Positions 12,503 to 56,024 of a DNA stretch of 64,000 nt are shown here, one piece after another. A program made the translations under genes and the position numbers. Location of the stretch: NCBI RefSeq assembly GCF_004010195.1, contig NC_057719.1:16042515-16106514 (forward strand), in the 5' to 3' direction. The DNA is from Chiloscyllium plagiosum (Eukaryota). Numbering within the stretch: the first letter of the stretch is position 1; every line of letters starts with the position of its first letter. The notes below the pieces were generated by a model that saw only the letters and a program-made list of their open reading frames with translations, had not been told where the DNA came from and did not search any database.

Positions 12503-12951
12503 TGCCTGCCCCTCTTCCGCGGTTATGTTAGAGCCCGGGTGTCCTTGGAGAAGGAGCACGCGGTGTCGACCAACACCCTGGAGTTGTTCAGGAAGAGGTG
12601 GGCGCCGCAGGGAGTGGAGTGCATCATTTCTCCCTCCAATTCTATTTTGATTTTGTCCCTACCCTCCCCTTCACTGTTTTGATCACACAGCACTGCCCTT
12701 TGATGTGAAGGGCAGTGTTTGTCACTGGCCACCCGGGTGTTTTTCTATCTTCCTGGTGGTGGAAATTGAATAAAGATTGGTGCACTTTGTGTCTTTCACT
12801 GTGTCTCACACCTGCACACACACACCATGGGTGCTGGGGATAAAATAAGCACTACCGCACTTAGGTGGTAGTGTGGGGGTTAAAAAAGAAAGGGGAAAGG
12901 AAAAAAAAAAAAAAAATCCCCCCCCCGTCTCACTAGAAAAAAGAAAAAAAA
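12503..12951 (+). mobile_element. Short Tx1-clade LINE 3' copy with TSD and short 3' transduction
   Basis: ORF2 C-terminus CLPLFRGYVRARVSLEKEHAVST...; 3' UTR; two A-tails separated by TCCCCCCCCCGTCTCACTAG; TSD AAGCCAAAGTCG at 12491-12502 and 12952-12963. Confidence 0.9.
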
Positions 12952-13416
12952 AAGCCAAAGTCGCACATGCCTCTGCCAGTCGTCTTAACCCAGTCATAAA
13001 TCCCGACACTGATTTCCCAATCCTTGAACTGCCGAGTAAAACAACAGTGTCTCAGAATTAAAGGAGGCTTAGGGTTGGAATATTCTTTAACTAAATCTGT
13101 CAAGTTTTGAAAGGTGCTCATTGCTTGTCATCTGCACTAATTCATTTGCCCAGACAAAATAGTGCATTCTTCCCACATACTGGGCCCAATCTTCAATGGC
13201 AAGGTTGAATGAGTTAAGCTTCCTGAATAGTAGCATGATGCAAGAAATGCTTACCCCAACTCAAAGGCAAATGTTGCAAGCGAGTTTCTTCTGGAACATG
13301 CTTTACTCTTGTTGCCACTGAAATGACTCCACAGAAGCCAGTATCCCATCACCAAGCCACCATTTATTTTCACTTGTAAAGTTCTTGACTCTGGCACAGC
13401 CTCTTCAGAGTCAGAA

Positions 13417-13730
13417 TCTTAGAGTCCTTACCGAGTGGAAACATGCCCTTCGGCCCAACAAGCCCACACTGACCCTCCGAAGAGTATCCCACCCAAACCC
13501 ATTTCCCAACTTTTACCCCTGACTAATTCACCTAACCTACACATCTCTGAACACCACGGGCAATTTAGCATGGCCAATTCACCTAACCTGCACATCTTTG
13601 AATTGTGGGAGGAAACCCACACAGACATGGGAAAATGTGCAAACTCCAAACAGACAGTTGCCTGAGGCTGGAATCGAACCTGAGTCCCTGGCACTGTGAG
13701 GCAGCAGTGCTAACCACTGAGCCACCGTGC
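13417..13730 (-). mobile_element. HE1-type SINE in the Gypsy 5' LTR
   Basis: A and B boxes plus core; TSD AGTCAGAA at 13409-13416 and 13731-13738. Confidence 0.9.
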
Positions 13731-13769
13731 AGTCAGAACCCCAGAGTATCAGAATCTCTGACACTTCTC

Positions 13770-14188
13770 TTTTTTTTTTCCTTTTTCATTTTTTCTTCTT
13801 TTTTAATTTAACCCCCACACTACCACCTAAGTGCGGTAGTGCTTATTTTTTCCCCCAGCACCCATGGTGTGTGTGTGCAGGTGTGAGACACAGTGAAAGA
13901 CACAAAGTGCACGAATCTTTATTCAAATTCCACCACCAGAAAGATAGGAAAATACCCGGGTGTCCAGTGACAAACACTGCCCTTCACATCAAAGGGCAGT
14001 GCTGTGTGATCAAAACAGTGAAGGGGAGGGTAGGGACTAAATCAAAATAGAGTTGGAGGGGGAAATAATGCACTCCACTCCCTGCGGCGCCCACCTTTCC
14101 CTGAACAACTCCAGGGTGTTGGTCGACACCGCGTGCTCCTTCTCCAAGGACACCCGGGCTCTAACGTAACCGCGGAAGAGGGGCAGGC
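13770..14188 (-). mobile_element. Short Tx1 3' copy A in the Gypsy LTR
   Basis: Homologous to 12503-12900; flanked by GACACTTCTC at 13760-13769 and 14189-14198. Confidence 0.9.
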
Positions 14189-14198
14189 GACACTTCTC

Positions 14199-14704
14199 TT
14201 TTTTTTTTTCGGCCCTAATGACCCTCTCCACGGCTCGCTGCCTGGACCTTCTCCTGTTTATATTTTTTTTCTCCTGTTTATATTTTTTTTTTCTCCTGTT
14301 TATTTTTTATTTTTATTTTTTTCTTTCAGTTTCCACCACCAGGAAGATAGGAAAACACCCGGGTGGCCTGCTCCTGTTTATTTATTTATTTATTTATTTT
14401 TCCTCTTTTTAATAATTTAACCCCCACACTACCACCTAAGTGCGGTAGTTCTCCTGTTTATATTTTTTTTTTCTCTCTTTTTCTTTTTTTTTATAATTTA
14501 ACCCCCACACTACCACCTAAGTGCAGTAGTACAGTGGAGGGGAGGGTAGGGACTAAATCAAAATAGAATTGGAGGGAGAAATGATGCACTCCACTCCCTG
14601 CGGCGCCCACCTCTCCCTGAACAACTCCAGGGTGTTGGTCGACACCGCGTGCTCCTTCTCCAAGGACACCCGGGCTCTAACGTAACCGCGGAAGAGGGGC
14701 AGGC
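14199..14704 (-). mobile_element. Short Tx1 3' copy B with composite tail array
   Basis: Same 5' end as copy A, internal UTR deletion near 14530, flanked by GACACTTCTC (14189-14198, 14705-14714); the tail holds five CTCCTGTTTA repeats. Confidence 0.88.
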
Positions 14705-14802
14705 GACACTTCTCTTTTTATCTGGTCAGCCAGGACTCCTTATTGGACCAGATTAACAGCCCCAGTCAGGGAACTCAGTTAAAAAACCATGGATATCCAG
14801 CT

Positions 14803-19015: not shown

Positions 19016-19150
19016 ACTAAAATGACTCCACAGAGGCTGGTATCCTATCACCAAATCACCCTTTACTTACAAATGGAAAGTCTTTGACACTGGTCCAGCT
19101 CCCTCAGAGCCAGCTCTCAGATTCAACAGAACCTTTGACGTTCCTGTTTA
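19016..19150 (-). mobile_element. Gypsy LTR fragment (same family as 13319-14962)
   Basis: AAATGACTCCACAGAGGCTGGTATCCTATCACCAA... aligns to 13321-13410 and 13751-13770. Confidence 0.8.
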
Positions 19151-19200
19151 TTTTTTTGTCTCCAGGAGTGTCAGAGAGAACAGAACCTCTGACATGCCTG

Positions 19201-22200
19201 TTTTTTTTTGACCCTCCTGTTTGTTTTTTTTTCTCCTTTTCCCCACACTACCACCTAACCGCGGTAGTGCTTATATTTCCCCCAGCCCCCATGTTGTGTG
19301 TGTGCAGGTGTGAGACACAGTGAGAGACACAAGGTGTATGAATCATTATTCGGTTTCCACCACCAGGAAGAAAGGAAACACCCGAGTGGCCAGTGACAAG
19401 CACTGCCCTTCACAAAAGGGCAATGCTGTGTGATCAAACAGTGAAGGAGGGCAGGGATTAAATCAAAATAGAATTGGAAGGGGCCAGTTTATGGCCAGGC
19501 CCAAGAGCAGACCCATGAGGAGGTCTTCAGACCTGCCCTCCCTCCTCTGTACCGGGTGCCCGACGATCAGGAGCATGGGACTGAAGTGCAACTAAAAGCA
19601 GAGGAGATTTTTAAGAAAATCAAAAGGGAGTGCAAACGCCCACACCCAATATATACGTGGTCCACGGACTCCACAGAACAAGCAGTTGGGCTGGGAGTCC
19701 GTGAACTACCACAATCTGCGGTTGCAGGGGACCGCTACATGCAGCACCTTCCACCCCAGATCCCTGAGAGAAAGGGGGAGGACTCCCACGTAGAGAGCCC
19801 TCCACTGGGGATCCCCACCGCCCGGTGGCAAATGGACCCACCGAGGCGTGTCCGGTTGGTGGATGAGGGACAAGCGGTGGATGGTGTGCAGCAGCAGTCT
19901 ATACAGGGCCCACTTTATGTCCATAAAAAGGGACAAAATTAAAATTCCGGAGGCAGCTCAGGTTGTGGGGCACAGGCTCCCGTGGAAAGTACAGGACCTT
20001 GGGGCCAATGTGAAATTCCGTGCGGGCTGGGGTGAGTGCGGACAGGATCCCACCGCACACCCAAGCATCCAACTGGTGCACTACGTCGGGTCCGAGCACC
20101 GCCGTTTTAAGGTGTTGGATGGTGGTGGCCACGCTGCGGCAGCGTCCAGCCCAGGCCCCCGGCACCCAGCACGTCCCCGACCCTGGCCCCCCCCGCCGCC
20201 ACGGCCCTCCCCCCCGACAGCCACTCGAACCCGCGAGTACGGAGGTGCGGATTCCTGAGCAACGGCTCCCTGACGACAGCCGCTACTCCAGCCGGAGGGT
20301 AGGCGCGACGCGATTCGACCATGTTCCAGACAGTGATCAGGTCCTGGTAAAAGACAGGCAGCGTCTTGACGACGACCTCCAAACGGTCGACGAACAGGAG
20401 CTGCGTGTCGTAGTTGAGGTTACGCACCTGGCAGAAAAAATACGTCGCCAGGGCGCACCACCTAGGAGGAGGCTCGACGTAAAGGTATCGCCGCAAGGTC
20501 TGAAGGCGGAACGTCGCGACCTGGGTGCGGGCGCACACCAGCGACTGACCGCCCTCCTCAATAGGGAGACTCAGAGCCTGCGCGGCGACCCAGTGCATCT
20601 TTTTGTCCCATCGACCAACGTTCTCTGGATGTCAGCGACAAAGCCAGGAGGAGGGACCAAAGTGACCAGCCGGTACCACAGCATGGCGCCCACCAGCTGG
20701 TTTATAACCAGCACTGACACTCTGCGGCGGCGTACAAAAGTCGGATCCGGGCGACGAACTGCGCCCCGAACCCGAATGCCCGCAGAGTCCCGAGCAGGTA
20801 CTCGTGATCGACCCTGTCGGACGCCTTCTCCTGGTCGAGAGACAGGAAGGCGCTCGGCAGACCAGCCCGTCGACAGAAATGGATCAGGTCCCGGACCAGG
20901 TGGACGTTATCGTGTATCCTCCGGCCCGGGACCGTGTAGGACTGGTCCGGGTGGATCATGTGGGCCAGCACGGAGGCCAGGCGAGAGGACAACACCCTGG
21001 CGAAGATTTTGTAATCCGTGCCGAGGAGGGAGACCGGACGCCAGTTCTTTAAGGAACGAAGGTCCCCCTTCTTTGGCAGCAGGATGATGACCGCCCTGTG
21101 CCAAGAAAGGGGCAGCAGTCCGGCATTTAGGCACTCCCCCAGGACCTGTGCGTAGTCGCTCCCCAGGACGTCCCAGAACGCCCTGAAGAACTCCACAGTC
21201 AGCCCGTCCAGCCCCGGGGTTTTGCCCCTCGAGAGCCGGTCGAGGGCGCCGGTCAGCTCCTCCAAAGTGACGGGAGCGTCGAGCCTTCCGGCGTCCTCCG
21301 GGCTGAGCTGCGGCAGGTCCTCCCACAGAACTCTGCGAGCATCCTCGCTGGACGGATCCGGAGAGAACAGGGCTGTGTAATAGTTTCGGACGTGGGCCCT
21401 GACGCCCTCCGGGTCCGAGACGAGGGACCCGTCGTCGGCCAGCAGCACAAGGAGCTGCTGGCGGGTGCCACGCCTTTTTTCCAGCGAGTAGAAGAAGGGG
21501 GAGCCGCGGTCCAGGTCCTGGAGGAGCTGGATCCGCGGCCTCACGTACGCGCCCCGAGCCCCGACGAGCTGCAGGTCCCGGAGCGCGGCCTTCTTCTCTT
21601 CGTACGCCCCGCGCAGGGCCGGGTCCGCGTCGGGCTGACCGAGGCGTGAATCCAGGTCGAGCATCTCCCTCTCCAACTCCCCGATCCTGGATTTCCGCCT
21701 CTTCGTCGACCCCCTCGCGTACTCCTGACAGAAGACGCGGACGTGAGCCTTGCCCATGTCCCACCATAGCCTCAGGGAGGGGAAGCTTCCCCCCTTCCTT
21801 CTCCAGCTGGCCCAGAAACGACGAAACGAGTCCCGGAACCGCTCGTCCTCCAGCAGCAGGTTGTTAAAGTGCCAGTACGCGGAGCCGAGCCTGGCGCCGA
21901 ACAGGAGTTCCATCCACACCAGGTGGTGGTCCGTGCAGGACACCTGCCACGTGGAGGCCTTCGGAAAACAGGAGGCGTACGCCCGCGAAATGTACAGGCG
22001 GTCGATTCTGGACGCTCCGACCCCAGGCCTCACGAAGGTGAAGGCGATGGAGTCGGGATGGAGATTCCGCCAGACGTCCACCAGGTCGAAGGACTTGACC
22101 AAGTCCCCCAACCTCTTCCCCGACGCCCAGTCAGTGCGGGCACCGCCGTGGTCCCTGCCCTCGAGGACACAGTTAAAATCTCCCGAGGATGACGCACTGG

Positions 22201-24195
22201 TTCTTGTCAATGGAGGCGAGATGAGCGGACACTTCTTCAAAGAAGCTCGCTTGCCTCGGCCCGGCCAGGGGAGCATAGACTTTCACCAAGTGAAGCACCG
22301 CGCCCCCCAGCCGAACCGTCAGGTGAAGCAAACGGCCTGGCACTGGCTCCCTGACCCCCAAGATCTCCGGCTGAAAATGCAGGGCCAACAAGATAGCCAC
22401 CCCGCCAGATCTGCGGGTGAGGTGACTCATGTAAACTCCCCCTCGCCACTCCAGGAGCCAGGTGGCTTCGTCTCCCGGGGTAGTGTGGGTTTCTTGCAGG
22501 AAGCACACCGCATACCACCCGTCCCGAAGGACCGAGAGGGTCTGGAATCTGCGCTGTTACTCCTTGCTGCCATTGATGTTGAGGCAGGCTATAGTTGTCT
22601 CCATGTCAGAAGCGTTGTGCAACCACCACCAGTACAGTTAAAAACCTATATACATATTTACAGGGAGGACAAGGGAGGGGCACAGATGTCCCTCGCCCTC
22701 ACCAGGAGCGCCCCCAGGAAGTTCCTGACTCGCTTTCGCTCATTGACATCGAGCCCAGGCGCCTGGTGAGCAGCGTGGGCCGAACAGTAAACTCTCTCGA
22801 AGGAGCTCCAGCGGTCGAGCGCCAGTTGGGCTCTATCACGGCGACTCCGAGTTTTCTCGACAAACTCCTAGAGTTCCTCGAGGGGGATGGGGGGAGATCA
22901 GTGGGCGGCACCTGGGATTCAAAAATGTCACTGCAGACAGAGTCCACGTCGTCCCTGGTGTCCACCACCGATCCCGAACCCTCCTCAAGGAGGTCGCCCT
23001 CGGTCACCGACCCCTCCCCCACCAAGAGGATGGGTGCTGGTCCGGCGCCGCCAACCGGCCTCAAACCCCCGGCGACCCCACCCCCAGGGTCACCGGCGGT
23101 ACCTTCCTCGGTGCACCCCTTCCCGGAACACCCCGAGTTCAGCTCATCGGGCAGCAGAGGCTCGGGGCCCCGCTCCTCTCCCGACACCGGGACGCCCGGC
23201 TCCTCAGGAAAAATGTCCTCCCCCAGGTCCAGGGCCCCCGGGAAAACAGTCTGGGAGGGAGGAGCGAAGATAACGCCTTCCGCCCCTCCGCCACTCGACG
23301 ACCCAGCAGAGGGTCCTCCGTTGTTGCCGACACCATGGCCCGTGTGGTTATTAAAGTCCTCCCCAGGGGCCGGAGGAGTTGAGGCAGCAGGAGGCCCTGC
23401 TGTAGCCCCTGGGGGTTTGGGTAGGTCGGGCCACGGTGCCGGACAATGAAGAGGCATCATTAGCTCATCCGCTGAAGAGGGGCAGCACCACGAGCGCGCT
23501 GCTGGAGTATCTCTCCCCTCCAAGGGCCAGTGCCTCTTTCCCAGAGGGACAGGGGGGAATTTATGGGCCTTCCCCTCCCCGCCCGCCTTGGTGGTCATGG
23601 GGCCCGAGGTCCCTCCCCCCAGCCTTTCCCGGAATACGATTGGCTGGGGGAAGACAGGGGGCGTGGCCAGGGTGGGGAGGGTCAGGTGTGTCACTTCCTG
23701 CCCCGCCCCTGGTTTATCAGGTGATGGCGGGCGGGGCAGGGGCCCAGTTCCCTCTCTGGGGCCCAGAGACACGGTCGCTGGAGGAGGTAGGGCAGCGGTG
23801 GTTCCCCCCAGGTTAGTGCTAGGGTGCGGCTGGGTGGGATGGGACGGGACGGGACGGGGCGGGGCGGGGCGGAGCTCAGGGGTCCCCGGGCCAGGCGTTG
23901 CTCTATCGGGGTGGGTGTGGGGTCAGTGGGGCCGGGGTCAGTGCGGCCAGGATCAGGTATGGGTTTCGGGGTCAGGGTTCCCGCGCCAGGGCGACGCTGG
24001 CACAGCCGCAGGGGCATTGTCGTGCCGGGGTGGGGTAGGTCGTGGGCTAGGTGTCGGGGAAGGGAATAGGGTGGTCTCCCCGTGGGCGGGCCTGACATGC
24101 CGCGCCTTCTGGCCAGCCGGACGCTCACCCCCCTCCCTGCCAGAGGCTGGAGCATTGGAAGCCTCCGGTGCCGGGGCTTGTGGTGTTGACTTTGG
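19201..24195 (-). mobile_element. Long Tx1-clade LINE (ORF1 3' part, APE-RT ORF2, 3' UTR), defective
   Basis: ORF2 ATG at 22604 (METTIACLNING), CFLQETH, GDFNCVL, SRIDRLY, TDHH, KTPGLDGL, KNWRPVSLLGTDYKI, SLDQEKA; C-terminal Cys/His region near 19700-19620. Contains an early stop, frameshifts and deletions. The 5' end falls in the gap. Confidence 0.93.
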
Positions 24196-24619
24196 NNNNN
24201 NNNNNNNNNNNNNNNNNNNNNNNNNNNNNNNNNNNNNNNNNNNNNNNNNNNNNNNNNNNNNNNNNNNNNNNNNNNNNNNNNNNNNNNNNNNNNNNNNNNN
24301 NNNNNNNNNNNNNNNNNNNNNNNNNNNNNNNNNNNNNNNNNNNNNNNNNNNNNNNNNNNNNNNNNNNNNNNNNNNNNNNNNNNNNNNNNNNNNNNNNNNN
24401 NNNNNNNNNNNNNNNNNNNNNNNNNNNNNNNNNNNNNNNNNNNNNNNNNNNNNNNNNNNNNNNNNNNNNNNNNNNNNNNNNNNNNNNNNNNNNNNNNNNN
24501 NNNNNNNNNNNNNNNNNNNNNNNNNNNNNNNNNNNNNNNNNNNNNNNNNNNNNNNNNNNNNNNNNNNNNNNNNNNNNNNNNNNNNNNNNNNNNNNNNNNN
24601 NNNNNNNNNNNNNNNNNNN
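24196..24619. other. Assembly gap
   Basis: Run of N. Confidence 1.
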
Positions 24620-24915
24620 GTGAGCCTTGCCCACGTCCCACCATAGCCTCAGGGAGGGGAAGCTTCCCCGCTTCCTTCTCCAGCCGGCCCAGAAACAACG
24701 AAACGAGTCCCGGAACCGCTCGTCCTCCAGCAGCAGGTTGTTAAAGTGCCAGTACGCGGAGCCGAGCCTGGCGCCGAACAGGAGTTCCATCCACACCAGG
24801 TGATGGTCCGTGCAGGACACCTGCCACGTGGAGGCCTTCGGAAAACAGGAGGCGTACGCCCGCGAAATGTACAGGCGGTCGATTCTGGACGCTCCGACCC
24901 CAGGCCTCACGAAGG
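24620..24915 (-). mobile_element. Second Tx1 ORF2 segment, 5'-truncated
   Basis: Matches 21743-22038 with about 5 substitutions. Confidence 0.9.
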
Positions 24916-31621: not shown

Positions 31622-31968
31622 AGGAGAAAGTGAGGTCTGCAGATGCTGGAGATCAGAGCTGAAAATTTCATTTCCCCTCCTCCCACCTTGTCTCAGTCAA
31701 ATCCATCGAACTCAGCACCGCCTTCCTAACCTGCAATCTTCTTCCCGACCTCTCCGCCCCCACCCCAGTCTGGCCTATCACCCTCACCTTGACCTCTTTC
31801 CACCTATCACATTTCCGACGCCCCTCCCCCAAGTCCCTCCTCCCTACCTTTTATCTTAGCCTGCTGGACAAACTTTCCTCATTCCTGAAGAAGGGTTTAT
31901 GCCCGAAACGTCGATTCTCCTGTTCCCTGGATGCTGCCTGACCTGCTGCGCTTTTCCAGCAACACATT
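31622..31968 (+). mobile_element. PLE (Neptune-type) 3' UTR/pLTR with inverted terminal piece
   Basis: C-rich UTR homologous to 33578-33836; 31622-31667 is the antisense of the family 3' terminus. Confidence 0.8.
31881..31916 (+). ncRNA. Minimal type-I hammerhead ribozyme motif
   Basis: ATTC-CTGAAGA-A-GGGT-TTAT-GCCC-GAAACGTC-GATT. Confidence 0.75.
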
Positions 31969-33437
31969 CCAATCCAGTGAGGGAAGTTGGAAGATTTAAG
32001 CTGCTATCTTTTTGACGAGAGCCTACTAAGTGAAGGCCTGTCTGTCCTCTAATGTAGACATAGAAGAGCCAATGGCACTATTTTTAATAAGAGTTATAGA
32101 TACATAGAAAACACAGTAAGATTTCATGCACAGAAGGTAGTCGTCTGGCACATTATGTCCATACCAGTCGATGAATACCTCGTCACACTAATCCCACTCT
32201 CCAAATTTTGATTCCTAAACCCATTGACTGTTCCACCGCATGTTTTAATGTGATTATGGTTTTTGCCTGTATTACCCTTTGAACTCGTGGGTTCCAGAAC
32301 CTCACCACTGATGAGAAAGTTGTTCCAGGTGTCATAGTCAATATTTTTTCAATAATTAGTACAGCATTTCTTTTTGTGGGAGCTTGCTACATGTAAATTG
32401 CCTGCTATGTGTCAACACTGACTGTACTTCCAAAGTACTTTATTGGCTGTAAAGCATTTTGGATCTTTCTGTGGCCATAACAGTTACTATATAAATGCAA
32501 TTTAATTTTAATAACTCAATAGTTACTCATAGAAATCTAATGTTATATCACTGGGATGCTTTTTTGCCATTATTATGGCAATAATGTTTTTTTCAAATTT
32601 AAAAAAAAGTTATGATATTTCAGCTACTTTAATCCCATGTGTATCACTGATGATTTGTATTTACTCTGTGGAAATTTTAATTGAGTAGAAGATTTTACTG
32701 CATTTTACTTTCTGATTTGCTGTTTGAGAATACTTCAGTGTAATTGGCTGCCAACTCCCTGCGGTGATATCACTGTTACTGTATGCCTAGTGTTTGTCTT
32801 GATCTTGCACATATCAAGAAAGGGAAACTTCATGCCTCAGAGATCACTAGATAGCAGAAAATCCCTTTAATACTTCAAAGTACTCTTTTGGTATGATCCT
32901 AGATATTGAATATTGTTAGATATTATTACTGGAGCGAATCATAGATTTACATTTAAATAGTTCCCATTTCTGTCTTTGTTCACTCCTTTCCTCAGCAATA
33001 TTTTGTGTTTGATTTTGTCTACTTTCTGTGGTTTTATTTACCCTAATGAAGAAGAGCATATCTTCTCAACATCACAACTATTGATCTCACCCTGCTTGGC
33101 TGTTGTATGGAACCCCCTACGTGTTAACCCCTTAAAGCCAAATACATAACAATATTGTCAAATTTGATGGAATTTTAATGCATTTACTTTAGGGGAAATT
33201 TGGCATGTTAATATGCTGCAGTTTTTCTTATCTGCGATGTTTTGTGTTATGTTGCTGAAAATATTACTGATGAAATACTTAGCAGTTGTAGTAAAATCAT
33301 GCGTATACTTAGGATGAAGAAGATTATGAGTACCACATATGCTTGGTCCAGTTCTTGTTGGATTCATTTGGATATCAAAGTTGAAACTTTATTGCTGGAA
33401 CAGCACAGCAGGTCAGGCAGCATCCAGGGAACAGGAG

Positions 33438-33473
33438 ATTCGACGTTTCGGGCACAGGCCCTTCTTCAGGAAT
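33438..33473 (-). ncRNA. Intact minimal type-I hammerhead ribozyme motif
   Basis: ATTC-CTGAAGA-A-GGGC-CTGT-GCCC-GAAACGTC-GAAT on the minus strand. Confidence 0.82.
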
Positions 33474-33740
33474 GAGCAGAGAGTGTTCAGCAGGAGAAGA
33501 TAAAAGGTAGGGAGGAGGGACTTGGAGGAGGGGAGTTGGAAGTGGAGGAGATGCGGTGGAGGGCACCGTCGACCACGTCGCCTTCCTGACCTGCAGTCTT
33601 CTTGTTGACCTCTCCGCCTCCATCCTACTCCGACCTATCACCCTCACCTTGACCTCTTTCCACCTATCACATTTCCAACTCCCCTCCTCCAAGTCCCTCC
33701 TCCCTACCTTTTATCTTCTCCTGCTGAACACTCTCTGCTC

Positions 33741-33776
33741 ATTCCTGAAGAAGGGCCTGTGCCCGAAACGTCGAAT
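33741..33776 (+). ncRNA. Intact minimal type-I hammerhead ribozyme motif
   Basis: ATTC-CTGAAGA-A-GGGC-CTGT-GCCC-GAAACGTC-GAAT: helix I ATTC/GAAT, helix II GGGC/GCCC. Confidence 0.82.
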
Positions 33777-34148
33777 CTCCTGTTCCCTGGATGCTGCCTG
33801 ACCTGCTGTGCTGTTCCAGCAATAAAGTTTCAACTTAATAAATACAGCAAAGAATATTGTTTGAAAGGTTATCAGTGTTAAATAAAATGTGGGGTTCGGA
33901 GCAAGAATAGTATACGGTTGGGAATAGGATATCAGGCAGATTAGATGACATTGGAAATGACCCCAGAACTAGTGCCTTGTAGAAGATCAATACTGACTAT
34001 TGCTGAGGGAGTAAATGTAGTCTCTAAGTAGCTTCCGTTGGTGGGAGGCAGGAAAAGAAAAGGATTTTTGAAGTTATCGCCAAATCCTCTAAGAATTTGA
34101 AAGCTTCCCTCCTGCAGCAATCCTATAGGTACACATTTGTGTGCACTA

Positions 34149-41492: not shown

Positions 41493-41618
41493 GGAGAGGA
41501 GAAAGTGAGGTCTGCAGATGCTGGAGATCAAAGTTGAAACTTTATTGCTGGAACAGCACAGCAGGTCAGGCAGCATCCAGGGAACAGGAGATTCGACGTT
41601 TCGGGCACAGGCCCTTCT
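41493..41618 (-). mobile_element. Young PLE pLTR end inserted into a tRNA-like SINE head
   Basis: Identical to 33374-33465 over the shared part; TSD CCACTCTGC at 41484-41492 and 41619-41627. Confidence 0.88.
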
Positions 41619-42202
41619 CCACTCTGCCACAAGACGGCCCACAAGAGTCCTTCATTTACAAATAATACAATACATAACAATGCCACATGGTTACAGAACC
41701 AAATAAGGACAAATATAACATTAATTGCTCTGAATAGCCTCCTCTTCAAAGCCATTATCACCAAAATCAATTAACTCCTTTAAAACAGAGCAGACTAAAC
41801 ATTTACAAGAAAAGGACTGAGAGTGCAGGAGTGCAATAATAATTAAAGAATAAAGTTTTGAAGCATTATTTTTAGGAACAGGATCCCCACATAGATGAGG
41901 TCAGAGCTGAGTAGTATGGGCTGTGTCAGGAATCCAGTATTGTGGAGATATGCAAGATTAGATTAGACTGTTATAGAAAACTTTCATGTTCATGTTTGTT
42001 TTACTCATTATTAGTCACTACACTCAGAAAAGTTGCAGTTGTACGAAAAAGTACTTGTTGGTGCAATGACTAACTTAATCAGTCAAAAATGACTTGTTTA
42101 TTATTCCCTGCCCTCTATTTTAAAAAGCTATCCAGCAATAAGAGTTTTATGCAGTTTGAAGCATTTTTTAGTAAAAACACATTACATTTGAAACTAAACT
42201 TT

Positions 42203-55419: not shown

Positions 55420-55619
55420 TATGCTCCAATCAAAGGTCAGGGTTTGAAATACAAAATATCAACAAACTTAAATAATGCTGAAAACAAAAGCATAGTTTGC
55501 CAAAACTTTTCTTTTTTGTTCATCGAACTGGTACATTGGCCATGATAACACCTCTACCAATCAAAATCCATTTGCCAACCAATCAGCAATCACTTCTTAA
55601 CAGATTATACAATGTCAGG

Positions 55620-56024
55620 ACTGGCCATTAACAGGTCCAGGCAGCGGCCCGTGGAGGGGGTTGTTAGGGCCAACTGCCTGCCCCTCTTCCCCGTTTACAT
55701 TAGGGCCCGGGTGTCCTTGGAGAAGGAGCACGCGGATTCCACCAACACCCTGGAGTTGTTCAGGGAGAGGTGGGCGCCACAGGGAGTGGAGTGCATTATT
55801 TCCCCTGCCAACTCTATTTTGATTTAATCCCTGCCCTCCCCTTCACTGTTTGATCACACAGCATTGCCCTTTGTGAAGGGCACTGCTTGTCACTGGCCAC
55901 TCGGGTGTTTTCCTATCTTCCTGGTGGTGGAAATTGAATAAAGATTCGTACACCTTGTGTCTCTCACTGTGTCTCACACCTGCACACAGACAACATGGGT
56001 GTTGGGGGATAAATGAAAAAAAAA
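55620..56024 (+). mobile_element. 5'-truncated Tx1 3' copy
   Basis: LAINRSRQRPVEGVVRANCLPLF...; TSD ATACAATGTCAGG at 55607-55619 and 56025-56037. Confidence 0.9.

Follow-up and report, generated by a model that had tools for sequence, protein, structure and literature searches.

What process builds an array of five identical short repeats, separated by scraps of a retrotransposon's own sequence, inside an LTR? The window studied here (the whole stretch of DNA analysed, 64 kb of Chiloscyllium plagiosum, taken from a gapped assembly of 3.56 Gb in 101,977 contigs) carries such an array, and an earlier note had read it as an ordered log of insertions, primed repeatedly at one donor LTR and moved here whole by 3′ transduction. 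The exact word CTCCTGTTTA does occur at 14251, 14271, 14293, 14371 and 14451, with no further exact match in the 64 kb window; allowing up to one mismatch, the window holds 13 matches against 5.81 expected, a count reached by 0 of 100 shuffles. The spacers between the repeats measure 10, 12, 68 and 70 nt and contain, in order, a T-run, a T-run, a T-run with an internal 3′ UTR piece, and a T-run with the terminal hairpin, which, with an ORF2 piece ahead of the first repeat, agrees with the contents described earlier. On its reverse strand, CTCCTGTTTA reads as the TATA word of an LTR. The repeat was rightly called foreign to the locus: the local target word is GACACTTCTC (at 13760, 14189 and 14705) and the regenerated LTR word is CTCCTGTTTA. 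The reported matches to an LTR variant at 19141 and 19214 both stand, although each has one mismatch and neither is therefore exact.

The element reads on the minus strand at the array locus and is Tx1-like by ORF2 similarity, from which its class is assigned. A 526-aa ORF2 piece matched the X. laevis Tx1 ORF2 (149 kDa protein) with 52% identity and 93% cover, while most teleost-type matches in the same search reached 35–44%. An RVT_1 domain lies at 20702-22282 (E 6.5e-15), and the hallmarks of Tx1 (an A-rich tail, a target duplication and 5′ truncation) are present. As a positional reference we used one natural Tx1 copy (L132), 1240 nt counted from the 3′ end, whose ORF2 translation contains a C-terminal CCHC zinc finger (C-x2-C-x7-H-x4-C).

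A 36-nt pattern of the empty target site has 137 exact matches in the genome. On the opposite strand of 20 empty copies, CCAAT stands at −26 in 11, TATAAA at 0 in all 20 (fixed by the search pattern), an initiator-like TCACTCT at +27 in 12 and AATAAA at +85 in 9, and a purine-rich tract was seen by eye upstream in about 7 of the 20. From this layout, the LTR is predicted to carry a working promoter. The Tx1 insert faces in the LTR direction, between the TATA word and the predicted start, and the flanks of the array match the target LTR, with a degenerate TATA word. An outer duplication of 10–20 nt was found in 69 of 147 sampled loci, and the LTR TATA word was the target at 34 of these 69 resolvable sites; in the text available, Kojima (2015, PMC4494074) regards a Tx1 family as target-preferring when more than 20% of its flanks fall in one sequence type, a share exceeded here. 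One insertion (L152, C1:136,024,600-136,028,700) lies in the target LTR family in the opposite orientation and at a different position, near an inverted CCAAT-like word.

Along the forward strand, the locus begins with the downstream (poly-A-signal) part of the target LTR (13321..13414, minus strand; matching an empty LTR copy at 74% over 94 nt), split off from the remainder by a dispersed repeat at 13419-13730 detected by self-BLAST. The first copy of the local target-site duplication, a degenerate LTR TATA word read backwards (13760..13774, plus strand), is followed by unit 1 (13775..14188, minus strand), a tail with a 5′-truncated Tx1 copy covering reference 1-390, whose last 91 nt are identical to 14614-14704. 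The second copy (14189..14203, plus strand) and its T-run, which extends to 14209, lead into module A (14210..14302, minus strand), composed of an ORF2 piece (14210-14249, minus strand; reference 393-433, with the ORF2 stop at 295) and the three foreign target words at 14251, 14271 and 14293 with their T-runs. Module B (14303..14463, minus strand) holds a tail, the internal 3′ UTR piece (14325-14368, minus strand; reference 124-167), the foreign word at 14371, another tail, the terminal hairpin (14416-14449, minus strand; it folds with a z of −2.95) and the foreign word at 14451. Next come a tail and a second terminal hairpin (14464..14530, minus strand; hairpin at 14487-14530, reference 1-42), joined without a tail to reference 217-390 (14531..14704, minus strand), where the insert ends. 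The third copy of the local duplication (14705..14719, plus strand) is followed by the promoter half of the target LTR with its CCAAT box (14720..14773, minus strand), which faces into the stack and, over 70 nt (14705-14773), matches an empty copy at 83%. The piece at 14531-14704 and the body of unit 1 (13799-14188) end at one and the same base, reference 390. This common end, the continuation of the insert to 14704 and the TATA identity of the repeat had escaped the earlier note.

Among three contig sets and one RNA run placed on 14210-14705, no contig or read spans the array, whose middle was skipped as repeat. Just past the junction that closes the ORF2 piece of module A, depth is provided by contigs of X1 and X2, two other runs. 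From about 2 in 100 of the RNA run, 395 reads were placed, with a strong strand bias (281 vs 13 at the peak); 17 of the 395 reached at least 99% identity, the signal being family-wide rather than from the locus of the array. The bias fits sense transcription of the Tx1 family, not of the array's locus.

Comparable arrays are abundant in this genome. One hairpin variant is matched exactly 2084 times and a second 579 times, giving at least 2,663 exact hairpin copies, and two sets of loci were sampled from them: set 1 comprises all 65 clusters formed by 88 hairpin places on one contig (C1), and set 2 draws on the second variant and comprises 82 loci (22 from the first 30 clusters, 8 having been removed for overlap or duplication, and 60 from the 62 that follow). 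Two or more pieces were found at 48 of 65 loci in set 1 and 51 of 82 in set 2 (99 of 147 together), and five or more at 17 and 22 loci, respectively. LTR sites carry more pieces per locus (a mean of 3.8 vs 1.9 elsewhere, p = 0.0005; 34 + 34 loci, one dropped as misclassed). Inner linkers opened with the local target word in 46 of 89 cases, an arrangement in which units are separated by the local target duplication as in R1-type tandems, and which the three local words of the window repeat; the other 43 opened with a non-local word, mostly CTCCTGTTT-type as judged by eye. Both in-place re-use and import therefore occur. One linker word that is seldom seen, GGGTATAGCACTTTA, turns up again at unrelated loci (L022 at ~1230-1900, L056 at ~170, and L259) as a further travelling junction.

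The tails of 349 pieces from both sets consist of ~88% T, 7% C and 3–5% A on the array strand, with the same composition at true and internal 3′ ends. Tail C (G in the RNA) at ~7% compares with 1.3% at body T sites, and mixed tailing by a host enzyme is one candidate source, although the C content is higher in older pieces (8%, against 3.9% in 15 young ones) and some patterns are common to different loci. The data do not support internal priming on A-rich tracts as the source of the internal 3′ ends: the 120 tailed internal ends are spread over 83 positions, and T is no more frequent in the reference immediately 3′ of these ends than in the background (0.75 vs 0.79). The internal ends may represent either oligoadenylated RNAs or T-rich linkers made by the reverse transcriptase, the DNA fitting either. 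The earlier proposal that fragments of the element's own oligoadenylated RNA were captured is borne out as far as the spacers are tailed pieces of that RNA.

Junction A (reference 433 to the target word) was found exactly at 10 places on 8 contigs, junction B1 (reference 167 to the word) at 5 places and junction B2 (hairpin to the word) at 19, and within the gapped assembly A and B1 coincide only in the window. Among the best 40 of 1293 candidates scored, no BLAST match covers the join between A and B, the best matches covering either side of it. All 5 places that carry both B1 and B2 continue differently, and after B2 at least 12 different forms were seen at 18 readable places, with direct hairpin starts lumped as one; two of the B2 places (L107 and L113) have a common tail pattern, so some of these continuations are not new. 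After junction A, one to four words follow, varying between places, and the AT count in the first word ranges from 1 to 7, while the 3′ ends of the pieces that carry this junction are scattered and mostly internal.

One donor would pass the same upstream piece to all its daughters; since the continuations differ, the array is not one donor's log moved whole. Nor is the order of the spacers an order of insertion at one site, because the continuations of B2 vary and A and B1 co-occur nowhere else in the assembly. The earlier reading is supported in part, but three of its claims are not: repeated target-primed reverse transcription at one donor LTR meets the absence of any other place with junctions A and B1, transduction of the whole array meets the absence from the gapped assembly of a donor locus with the same sequence and order, and the insertion log meets modules that recur separately. 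What is left of the transfer is that parts did arrive from other loci, though not as a whole array from one donor. The array was likely stitched together from several RNAs by jumps of the reverse transcriptase at T-runs.

Another regularity of these stacks concerns their 5′ ends. Pieces within a locus ended no more than 1 nt apart in 136 of 706 pairs in set 1 and 112 of 702 in set 2, a total of 248 of 1408 where ~20 were expected; in a permutation control of 2000 rounds the means were 10.5 and 9.2 and the maxima 23 and 25. Shared ends were present at 24 and 31 loci, compared with permutation means near 7 and maxima of 15 and 14. These same-end pairs are not simple duplications, because 60 of the 136 differ in their 3′ starts, each piece with a tail of its own, and because, of 1543 differences in the bodies, 854 involve two alleles that are each present in at least three other loci. 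The copying of one RNA repeatedly in a single event was also rejected as a general rule, since the bodies differ by 5–8% far from the junction.

We compared each unit with its next same-end partner at non-CpG sites (66 pairs in 24 loci and 69 pairs in 31 loci) and found that likeness decays with distance from the shared end. Mismatch climbs from 2.1% in the last 10 nt to 5.2% beyond 160 nt in set 1, and from 2.9% to 7.7% in set 2; copies from other loci differ by 5.8–9.1%. Rare alleles follow the same course, being shared in 8 of 13 and 20 of 31 cases in the last 10 nt and in 4 of 77 and 6 of 88 beyond 160 nt (sets 1 and 2, respectively), with a bump in set 2 at 80–159 nt (26 of 85). The next 10 nt agree in 127 of 135 same-end pairs. 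Beyond 160 nt, same-end pairs are still more alike than copies from other loci (5.2 vs 7.2% and 7.7 vs 9.1%), and from this residual likeness and the bump at 80–159 nt some of the pairs may be plain duplications.

The shared end also tracks the linker. Inner units carried it in 33 of 46 cases when a local word follows and in 3 of 43 when a foreign word follows, and 14 of 29 tail-less joins end at a junction that recurs within their locus. Tail-less pieces are not uniformly close to their same-end partners, with 0 of 114 differences in one locus (L086) and 12–15 of ~170 in another (L246). Taken together, these patterns suggest that a new cDNA likely completes on a resident copy. In the window, unit 1 and the outer piece have 0 mismatches over the last 91 nt and 5 over the preceding 83 nt, and 0 of 47 other copies are identical there; unit 1 (13775-14188) most likely took its end from 14531-14704 by pairing. 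Of 19 complete stacks with a repeated end, 16 share the end that lies on the promoter side. An RNA transcribed from the locus is a less likely template for the junction than the resident DNA, because a transcript starting 30 nt after the TATA word would begin inside that promoter-side unit, and because 4 of 16 multi-piece stacks at non-LTR sites also repeat an end.

Reference position 390 was considered as a genome-wide hot spot and set aside. A search for the 21-mer followed by a non-A base gave 25 places, mostly substitutions or small deletions; besides the two ends in the window, about three pieces end there (L042, L044 and L062), and in set 1 no 5′ end is found in more than 6 of the 65 loci.

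Our preferred reading, to which we give a probability of roughly two in three, is that the array is a patchwork of Tx1 RNA scraps, assembled by a reverse transcriptase jumping at T-runs, set into the TATA site of an LTR and closed on a resident copy. The family would enter at the TATA word in the direction of the LTR, duplicating 10–20 nt, as is observed at the resolvable sites. Lying behind a promoter, truncated copies and whole stacks would then be transcribed from the LTR with the donor's target word on board. Carried words and junctions would in this way reach loci with other local targets, where imported words and modular junctions are indeed found. A cDNA that has reached a carried word and its T-run would resemble a fresh primer and could pair with the A-tail of another RNA; such re-priming would make the next piece differ from place to place, and the A–B join may have been made in the array's own insertion or one round earlier. 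At a re-used site the added unit combines the body of another copy with the 5′ end of the resident unit, and the cDNA would presumably anneal to the resident DNA, be trimmed or extended to the resident junction, copy the target word and close. The adjacency of 390 and 393 in the window might reflect the breakage of one RNA whose two halves were each copied during the first event at the locus, a guess from a single case. No host function is proposed; the stacks would be by-products that make occupied sites easier to hit again.

Several alternatives were weighed. The best placed, which we consider improbable, holds that each foreign word with its T-run was added at the DNA level in a different generation, with few jumps per event: a transcript that begins just within a stack has the donor's word at its head, and an insertion that closes un-annealed adds one word per round, so that the array would record a lineage's passage through several loci. 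The variable number of words after junction A speaks for it, as does one locus (L012/L033) with two canonical words before a variant word that runs into the LTR promoter half, and R2 is described in the text available as duplicating 13–28 nt of carried upstream target when it joins without annealing (PMC3774820). It would account for the inherited junctions equally well. Against it, stepwise growth of this kind should have left behind intermediates with a common upstream piece, whereas the five places with B1 and B2 all differ in what follows and no A+B intermediate is present in the assembly.

Considerably weaker is the original proposal that repeated priming at one donor LTR built the five repeats in order and that read-through moved them whole. 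All five words are of a single type foreign to the site, in-place re-use of the target is real at about half of the inner linkers, and donor-like arrays do exist on unplaced contigs (L009 and L019); the arrays with junction A lie on contigs of 1.0–1.5 kb, and a donor with both A and B could be missing from the gapped assembly. However, A adjoins B nowhere else in it and the modules occur apart with different neighbours, and whereas units added in place mostly share a 5′ end, the three pieces here that are followed by foreign words end at 433, 167 and ~42-45. The least likely account is that slippage or unequal crossing-over multiplied a unit later altered by gene conversion or mutation, or that the assembly is in error: tail-only units are 20–22 nt near-repeats able to slip, one locus (L008) has a near-exact doubled block, same-end pairs are somewhat more alike than unlinked copies and the middle of the array lacks read support, but the differing 3′ starts with their own tails and the body differences at sites polymorphic in other loci count against it, the gradient toward the junction is not expected from duplication, and the region immediately past junction A is covered by contigs of X1 and X2.

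Returning to the patchwork closed on a resident copy, we also looked at what might direct the family to its sites. GATTGG was present within 130 nt on the promoter side at 28 of 57 set-1 loci, compared with 2 of 57 control flanks (8 loci skipped), and at LTR sites ATTGG starts 34–38 nt from the start of the duplication in 25 of 34. Among 35 sites outside the LTR, which are almost all unrelated to one another, 19 have ATT[AG][AG] at 30–46 nt, against 1–8 in 14 control windows, and a looser form, in 32 of these sites, peaks at 36–39 nt (11, other bins 0–7). The ATT motif was chosen after looking at the data, and it did not stand out in an open 4-mer scan; its steering of target choice is accordingly a lead. 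Among the 35 non-LTR sites (for instance L164, L125, L236 and L263), and at 55600-55633 in the window, a CCAAT-like or ATT-purine motif lies ~20–24 nt beyond the nick on the promoter side, at an LTR-like offset, and may be a second recognition site or a tether for a host factor. The literature searched, with most subscription journals outside its coverage, gave no account of CCAAT/TATA tethering of a non-LTR element.

A broader picture can be drawn only tentatively, and we regard it as somewhat doubtful in its entirety. Closure on a resident copy might be the main route at re-used sites, giving each locus a heritable truncation point of its own and making a stack a better landing pad as it grows; the family might be steered less by the cut site than by a CCAAT/ATT-type motif ~36–39 nt from the second nick; and the captured LTR promoter might yield composite RNAs from stacks, their foreign words preserving the earlier landing sites as a lineage barcode over loci.

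In CRISPR arrays the repeat is regenerated with each addition and captured pieces lie between the repeats. The array described here differs in that its spacers are self-derived, 10–70 nt long and uneven, and their order is not the history of one site. A scan of 24 of the 28 window frames of at least 150 aa found no cas genes and only reverse transcriptase and endonuclease matches. The remark that the array resembles CRISPR in architecture only was apt: its spacers consist entirely of tail or Tx1 sequence, no genes for acquisition or interference were seen, and it is a variant of known Tx1/R1/R2 behaviour, not CRISPR-like in mechanism. Two further systems are comparable. HeT-A carries strings of 5′ tags, short 3′-end-plus-A pieces at the head of the next copy, and unlike the Tx1 stacks it adds to chromosome ends without a target duplication. 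In L1 chimeras a new cDNA recombines with a resident L1 copy, as an occasional event rather than the usual outcome at a site. The head-to-tail stacking of HeT-A and TART, as far as the available text describes it, is a likeness as well (PMC6581046).

Among known systems, the nearest include Tx1L of X. laevis and the crocodilian families Tx1-8_Crp, Tx1-4_AMi, and Tx1-Mar with SINEU-3 (Kojima 2015, PMC4494074). In the text available, these have a Tx1-type ORF2 and prefer another transposon as target (LTR retrotransposons in two families), and the report describes tandem SINEU-3 copies around a target duplication, possible use of a flanking promoter, and 5′ extensions attributed to template jumps or read-through; that text does not describe a TATA-box site, stacks of 5–16 pieces or a shared 5′ truncation point. 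The R1 arrays of Drosophila 28S genes (Stage and Eickbush 2009, PMC2718515) likewise have copies split by a duplication from insertion into a regenerated site, and upstream target carried to new sites, but, in the portion available, they average 2–3 elements in rDNA, and identical R1 junctions in D. melanogaster are put down to amplification of one event, whereas in the Tx1 stacks the bodies differ and the ends are shared. For R2, the available text has pairing of cDNA and target setting the 5′ junction, with carried target duplicated when pairing fails (PMC3774820), and R2 proteins jump between RNAs (PMC11371274); the homology there is target sequence on the RNA, whereas in the Tx1 stacks it is apparently the resident copy, which fixes one end per locus.

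How the 5′ end of a LINE is joined, and where truncation points come from, is a long-standing question usually approached with engineered R2 or L1. LTR targeting and stacking were already known from Tx1 relatives; what appears new here is the likely inheritance of locus-specific truncation points, of which we found no account for Tx1 stacks in the literature searched, most subscription journals lying outside its coverage. Stacks make up about two thirds of the sampled loci and their bodies act as natural barcodes, so homology-driven closure becomes measurable on natural events, in tract length and side of addition. A truncation point common to tandem LINE copies is not proof of duplication, nor should such arrays be taken for the time line of one site. 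We regard the inherited junctions as the main part of this analysis and the array as a CRISPR-like log as the lesser part.

The window contains other copies of the family. A long, broken Tx1-like copy (19214..24197, minus strand) lies in another LTR of the same family (LTR match at 19018-19151) and ends in an assembly gap. In addition, 296 nt of ORF2 occur twice (21743-22038 and 24620-24915, 98% identity) on either side of a gap of ~420 N, a sign of another long copy in the stack or of an overlap in the assembly. Pieces of the downstream half of the LTR lie inside stacks behind T-runs of their own (19141-19222 in the window; L064 at 600-950), the arrangement that read-through transcripts, extending from the element into the LTR and then copied, would leave. 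A separate 5′-truncated copy with its own target duplication (55633..56013, minus strand) is continuous across the 390/393 break. Another, on the opposite strand and also with its own duplication (12504..12916, plus strand), lies ~850 nt from the stack and ends 1 nt from point 390/391, though this is no genome-wide hot spot; a local template for its end is possible. Finally, short near-identical repeats, inverted and direct and in part 98–99% alike, at 31719-31962, 33369-33836 and 41495-41621 are a young element with inverted arms.
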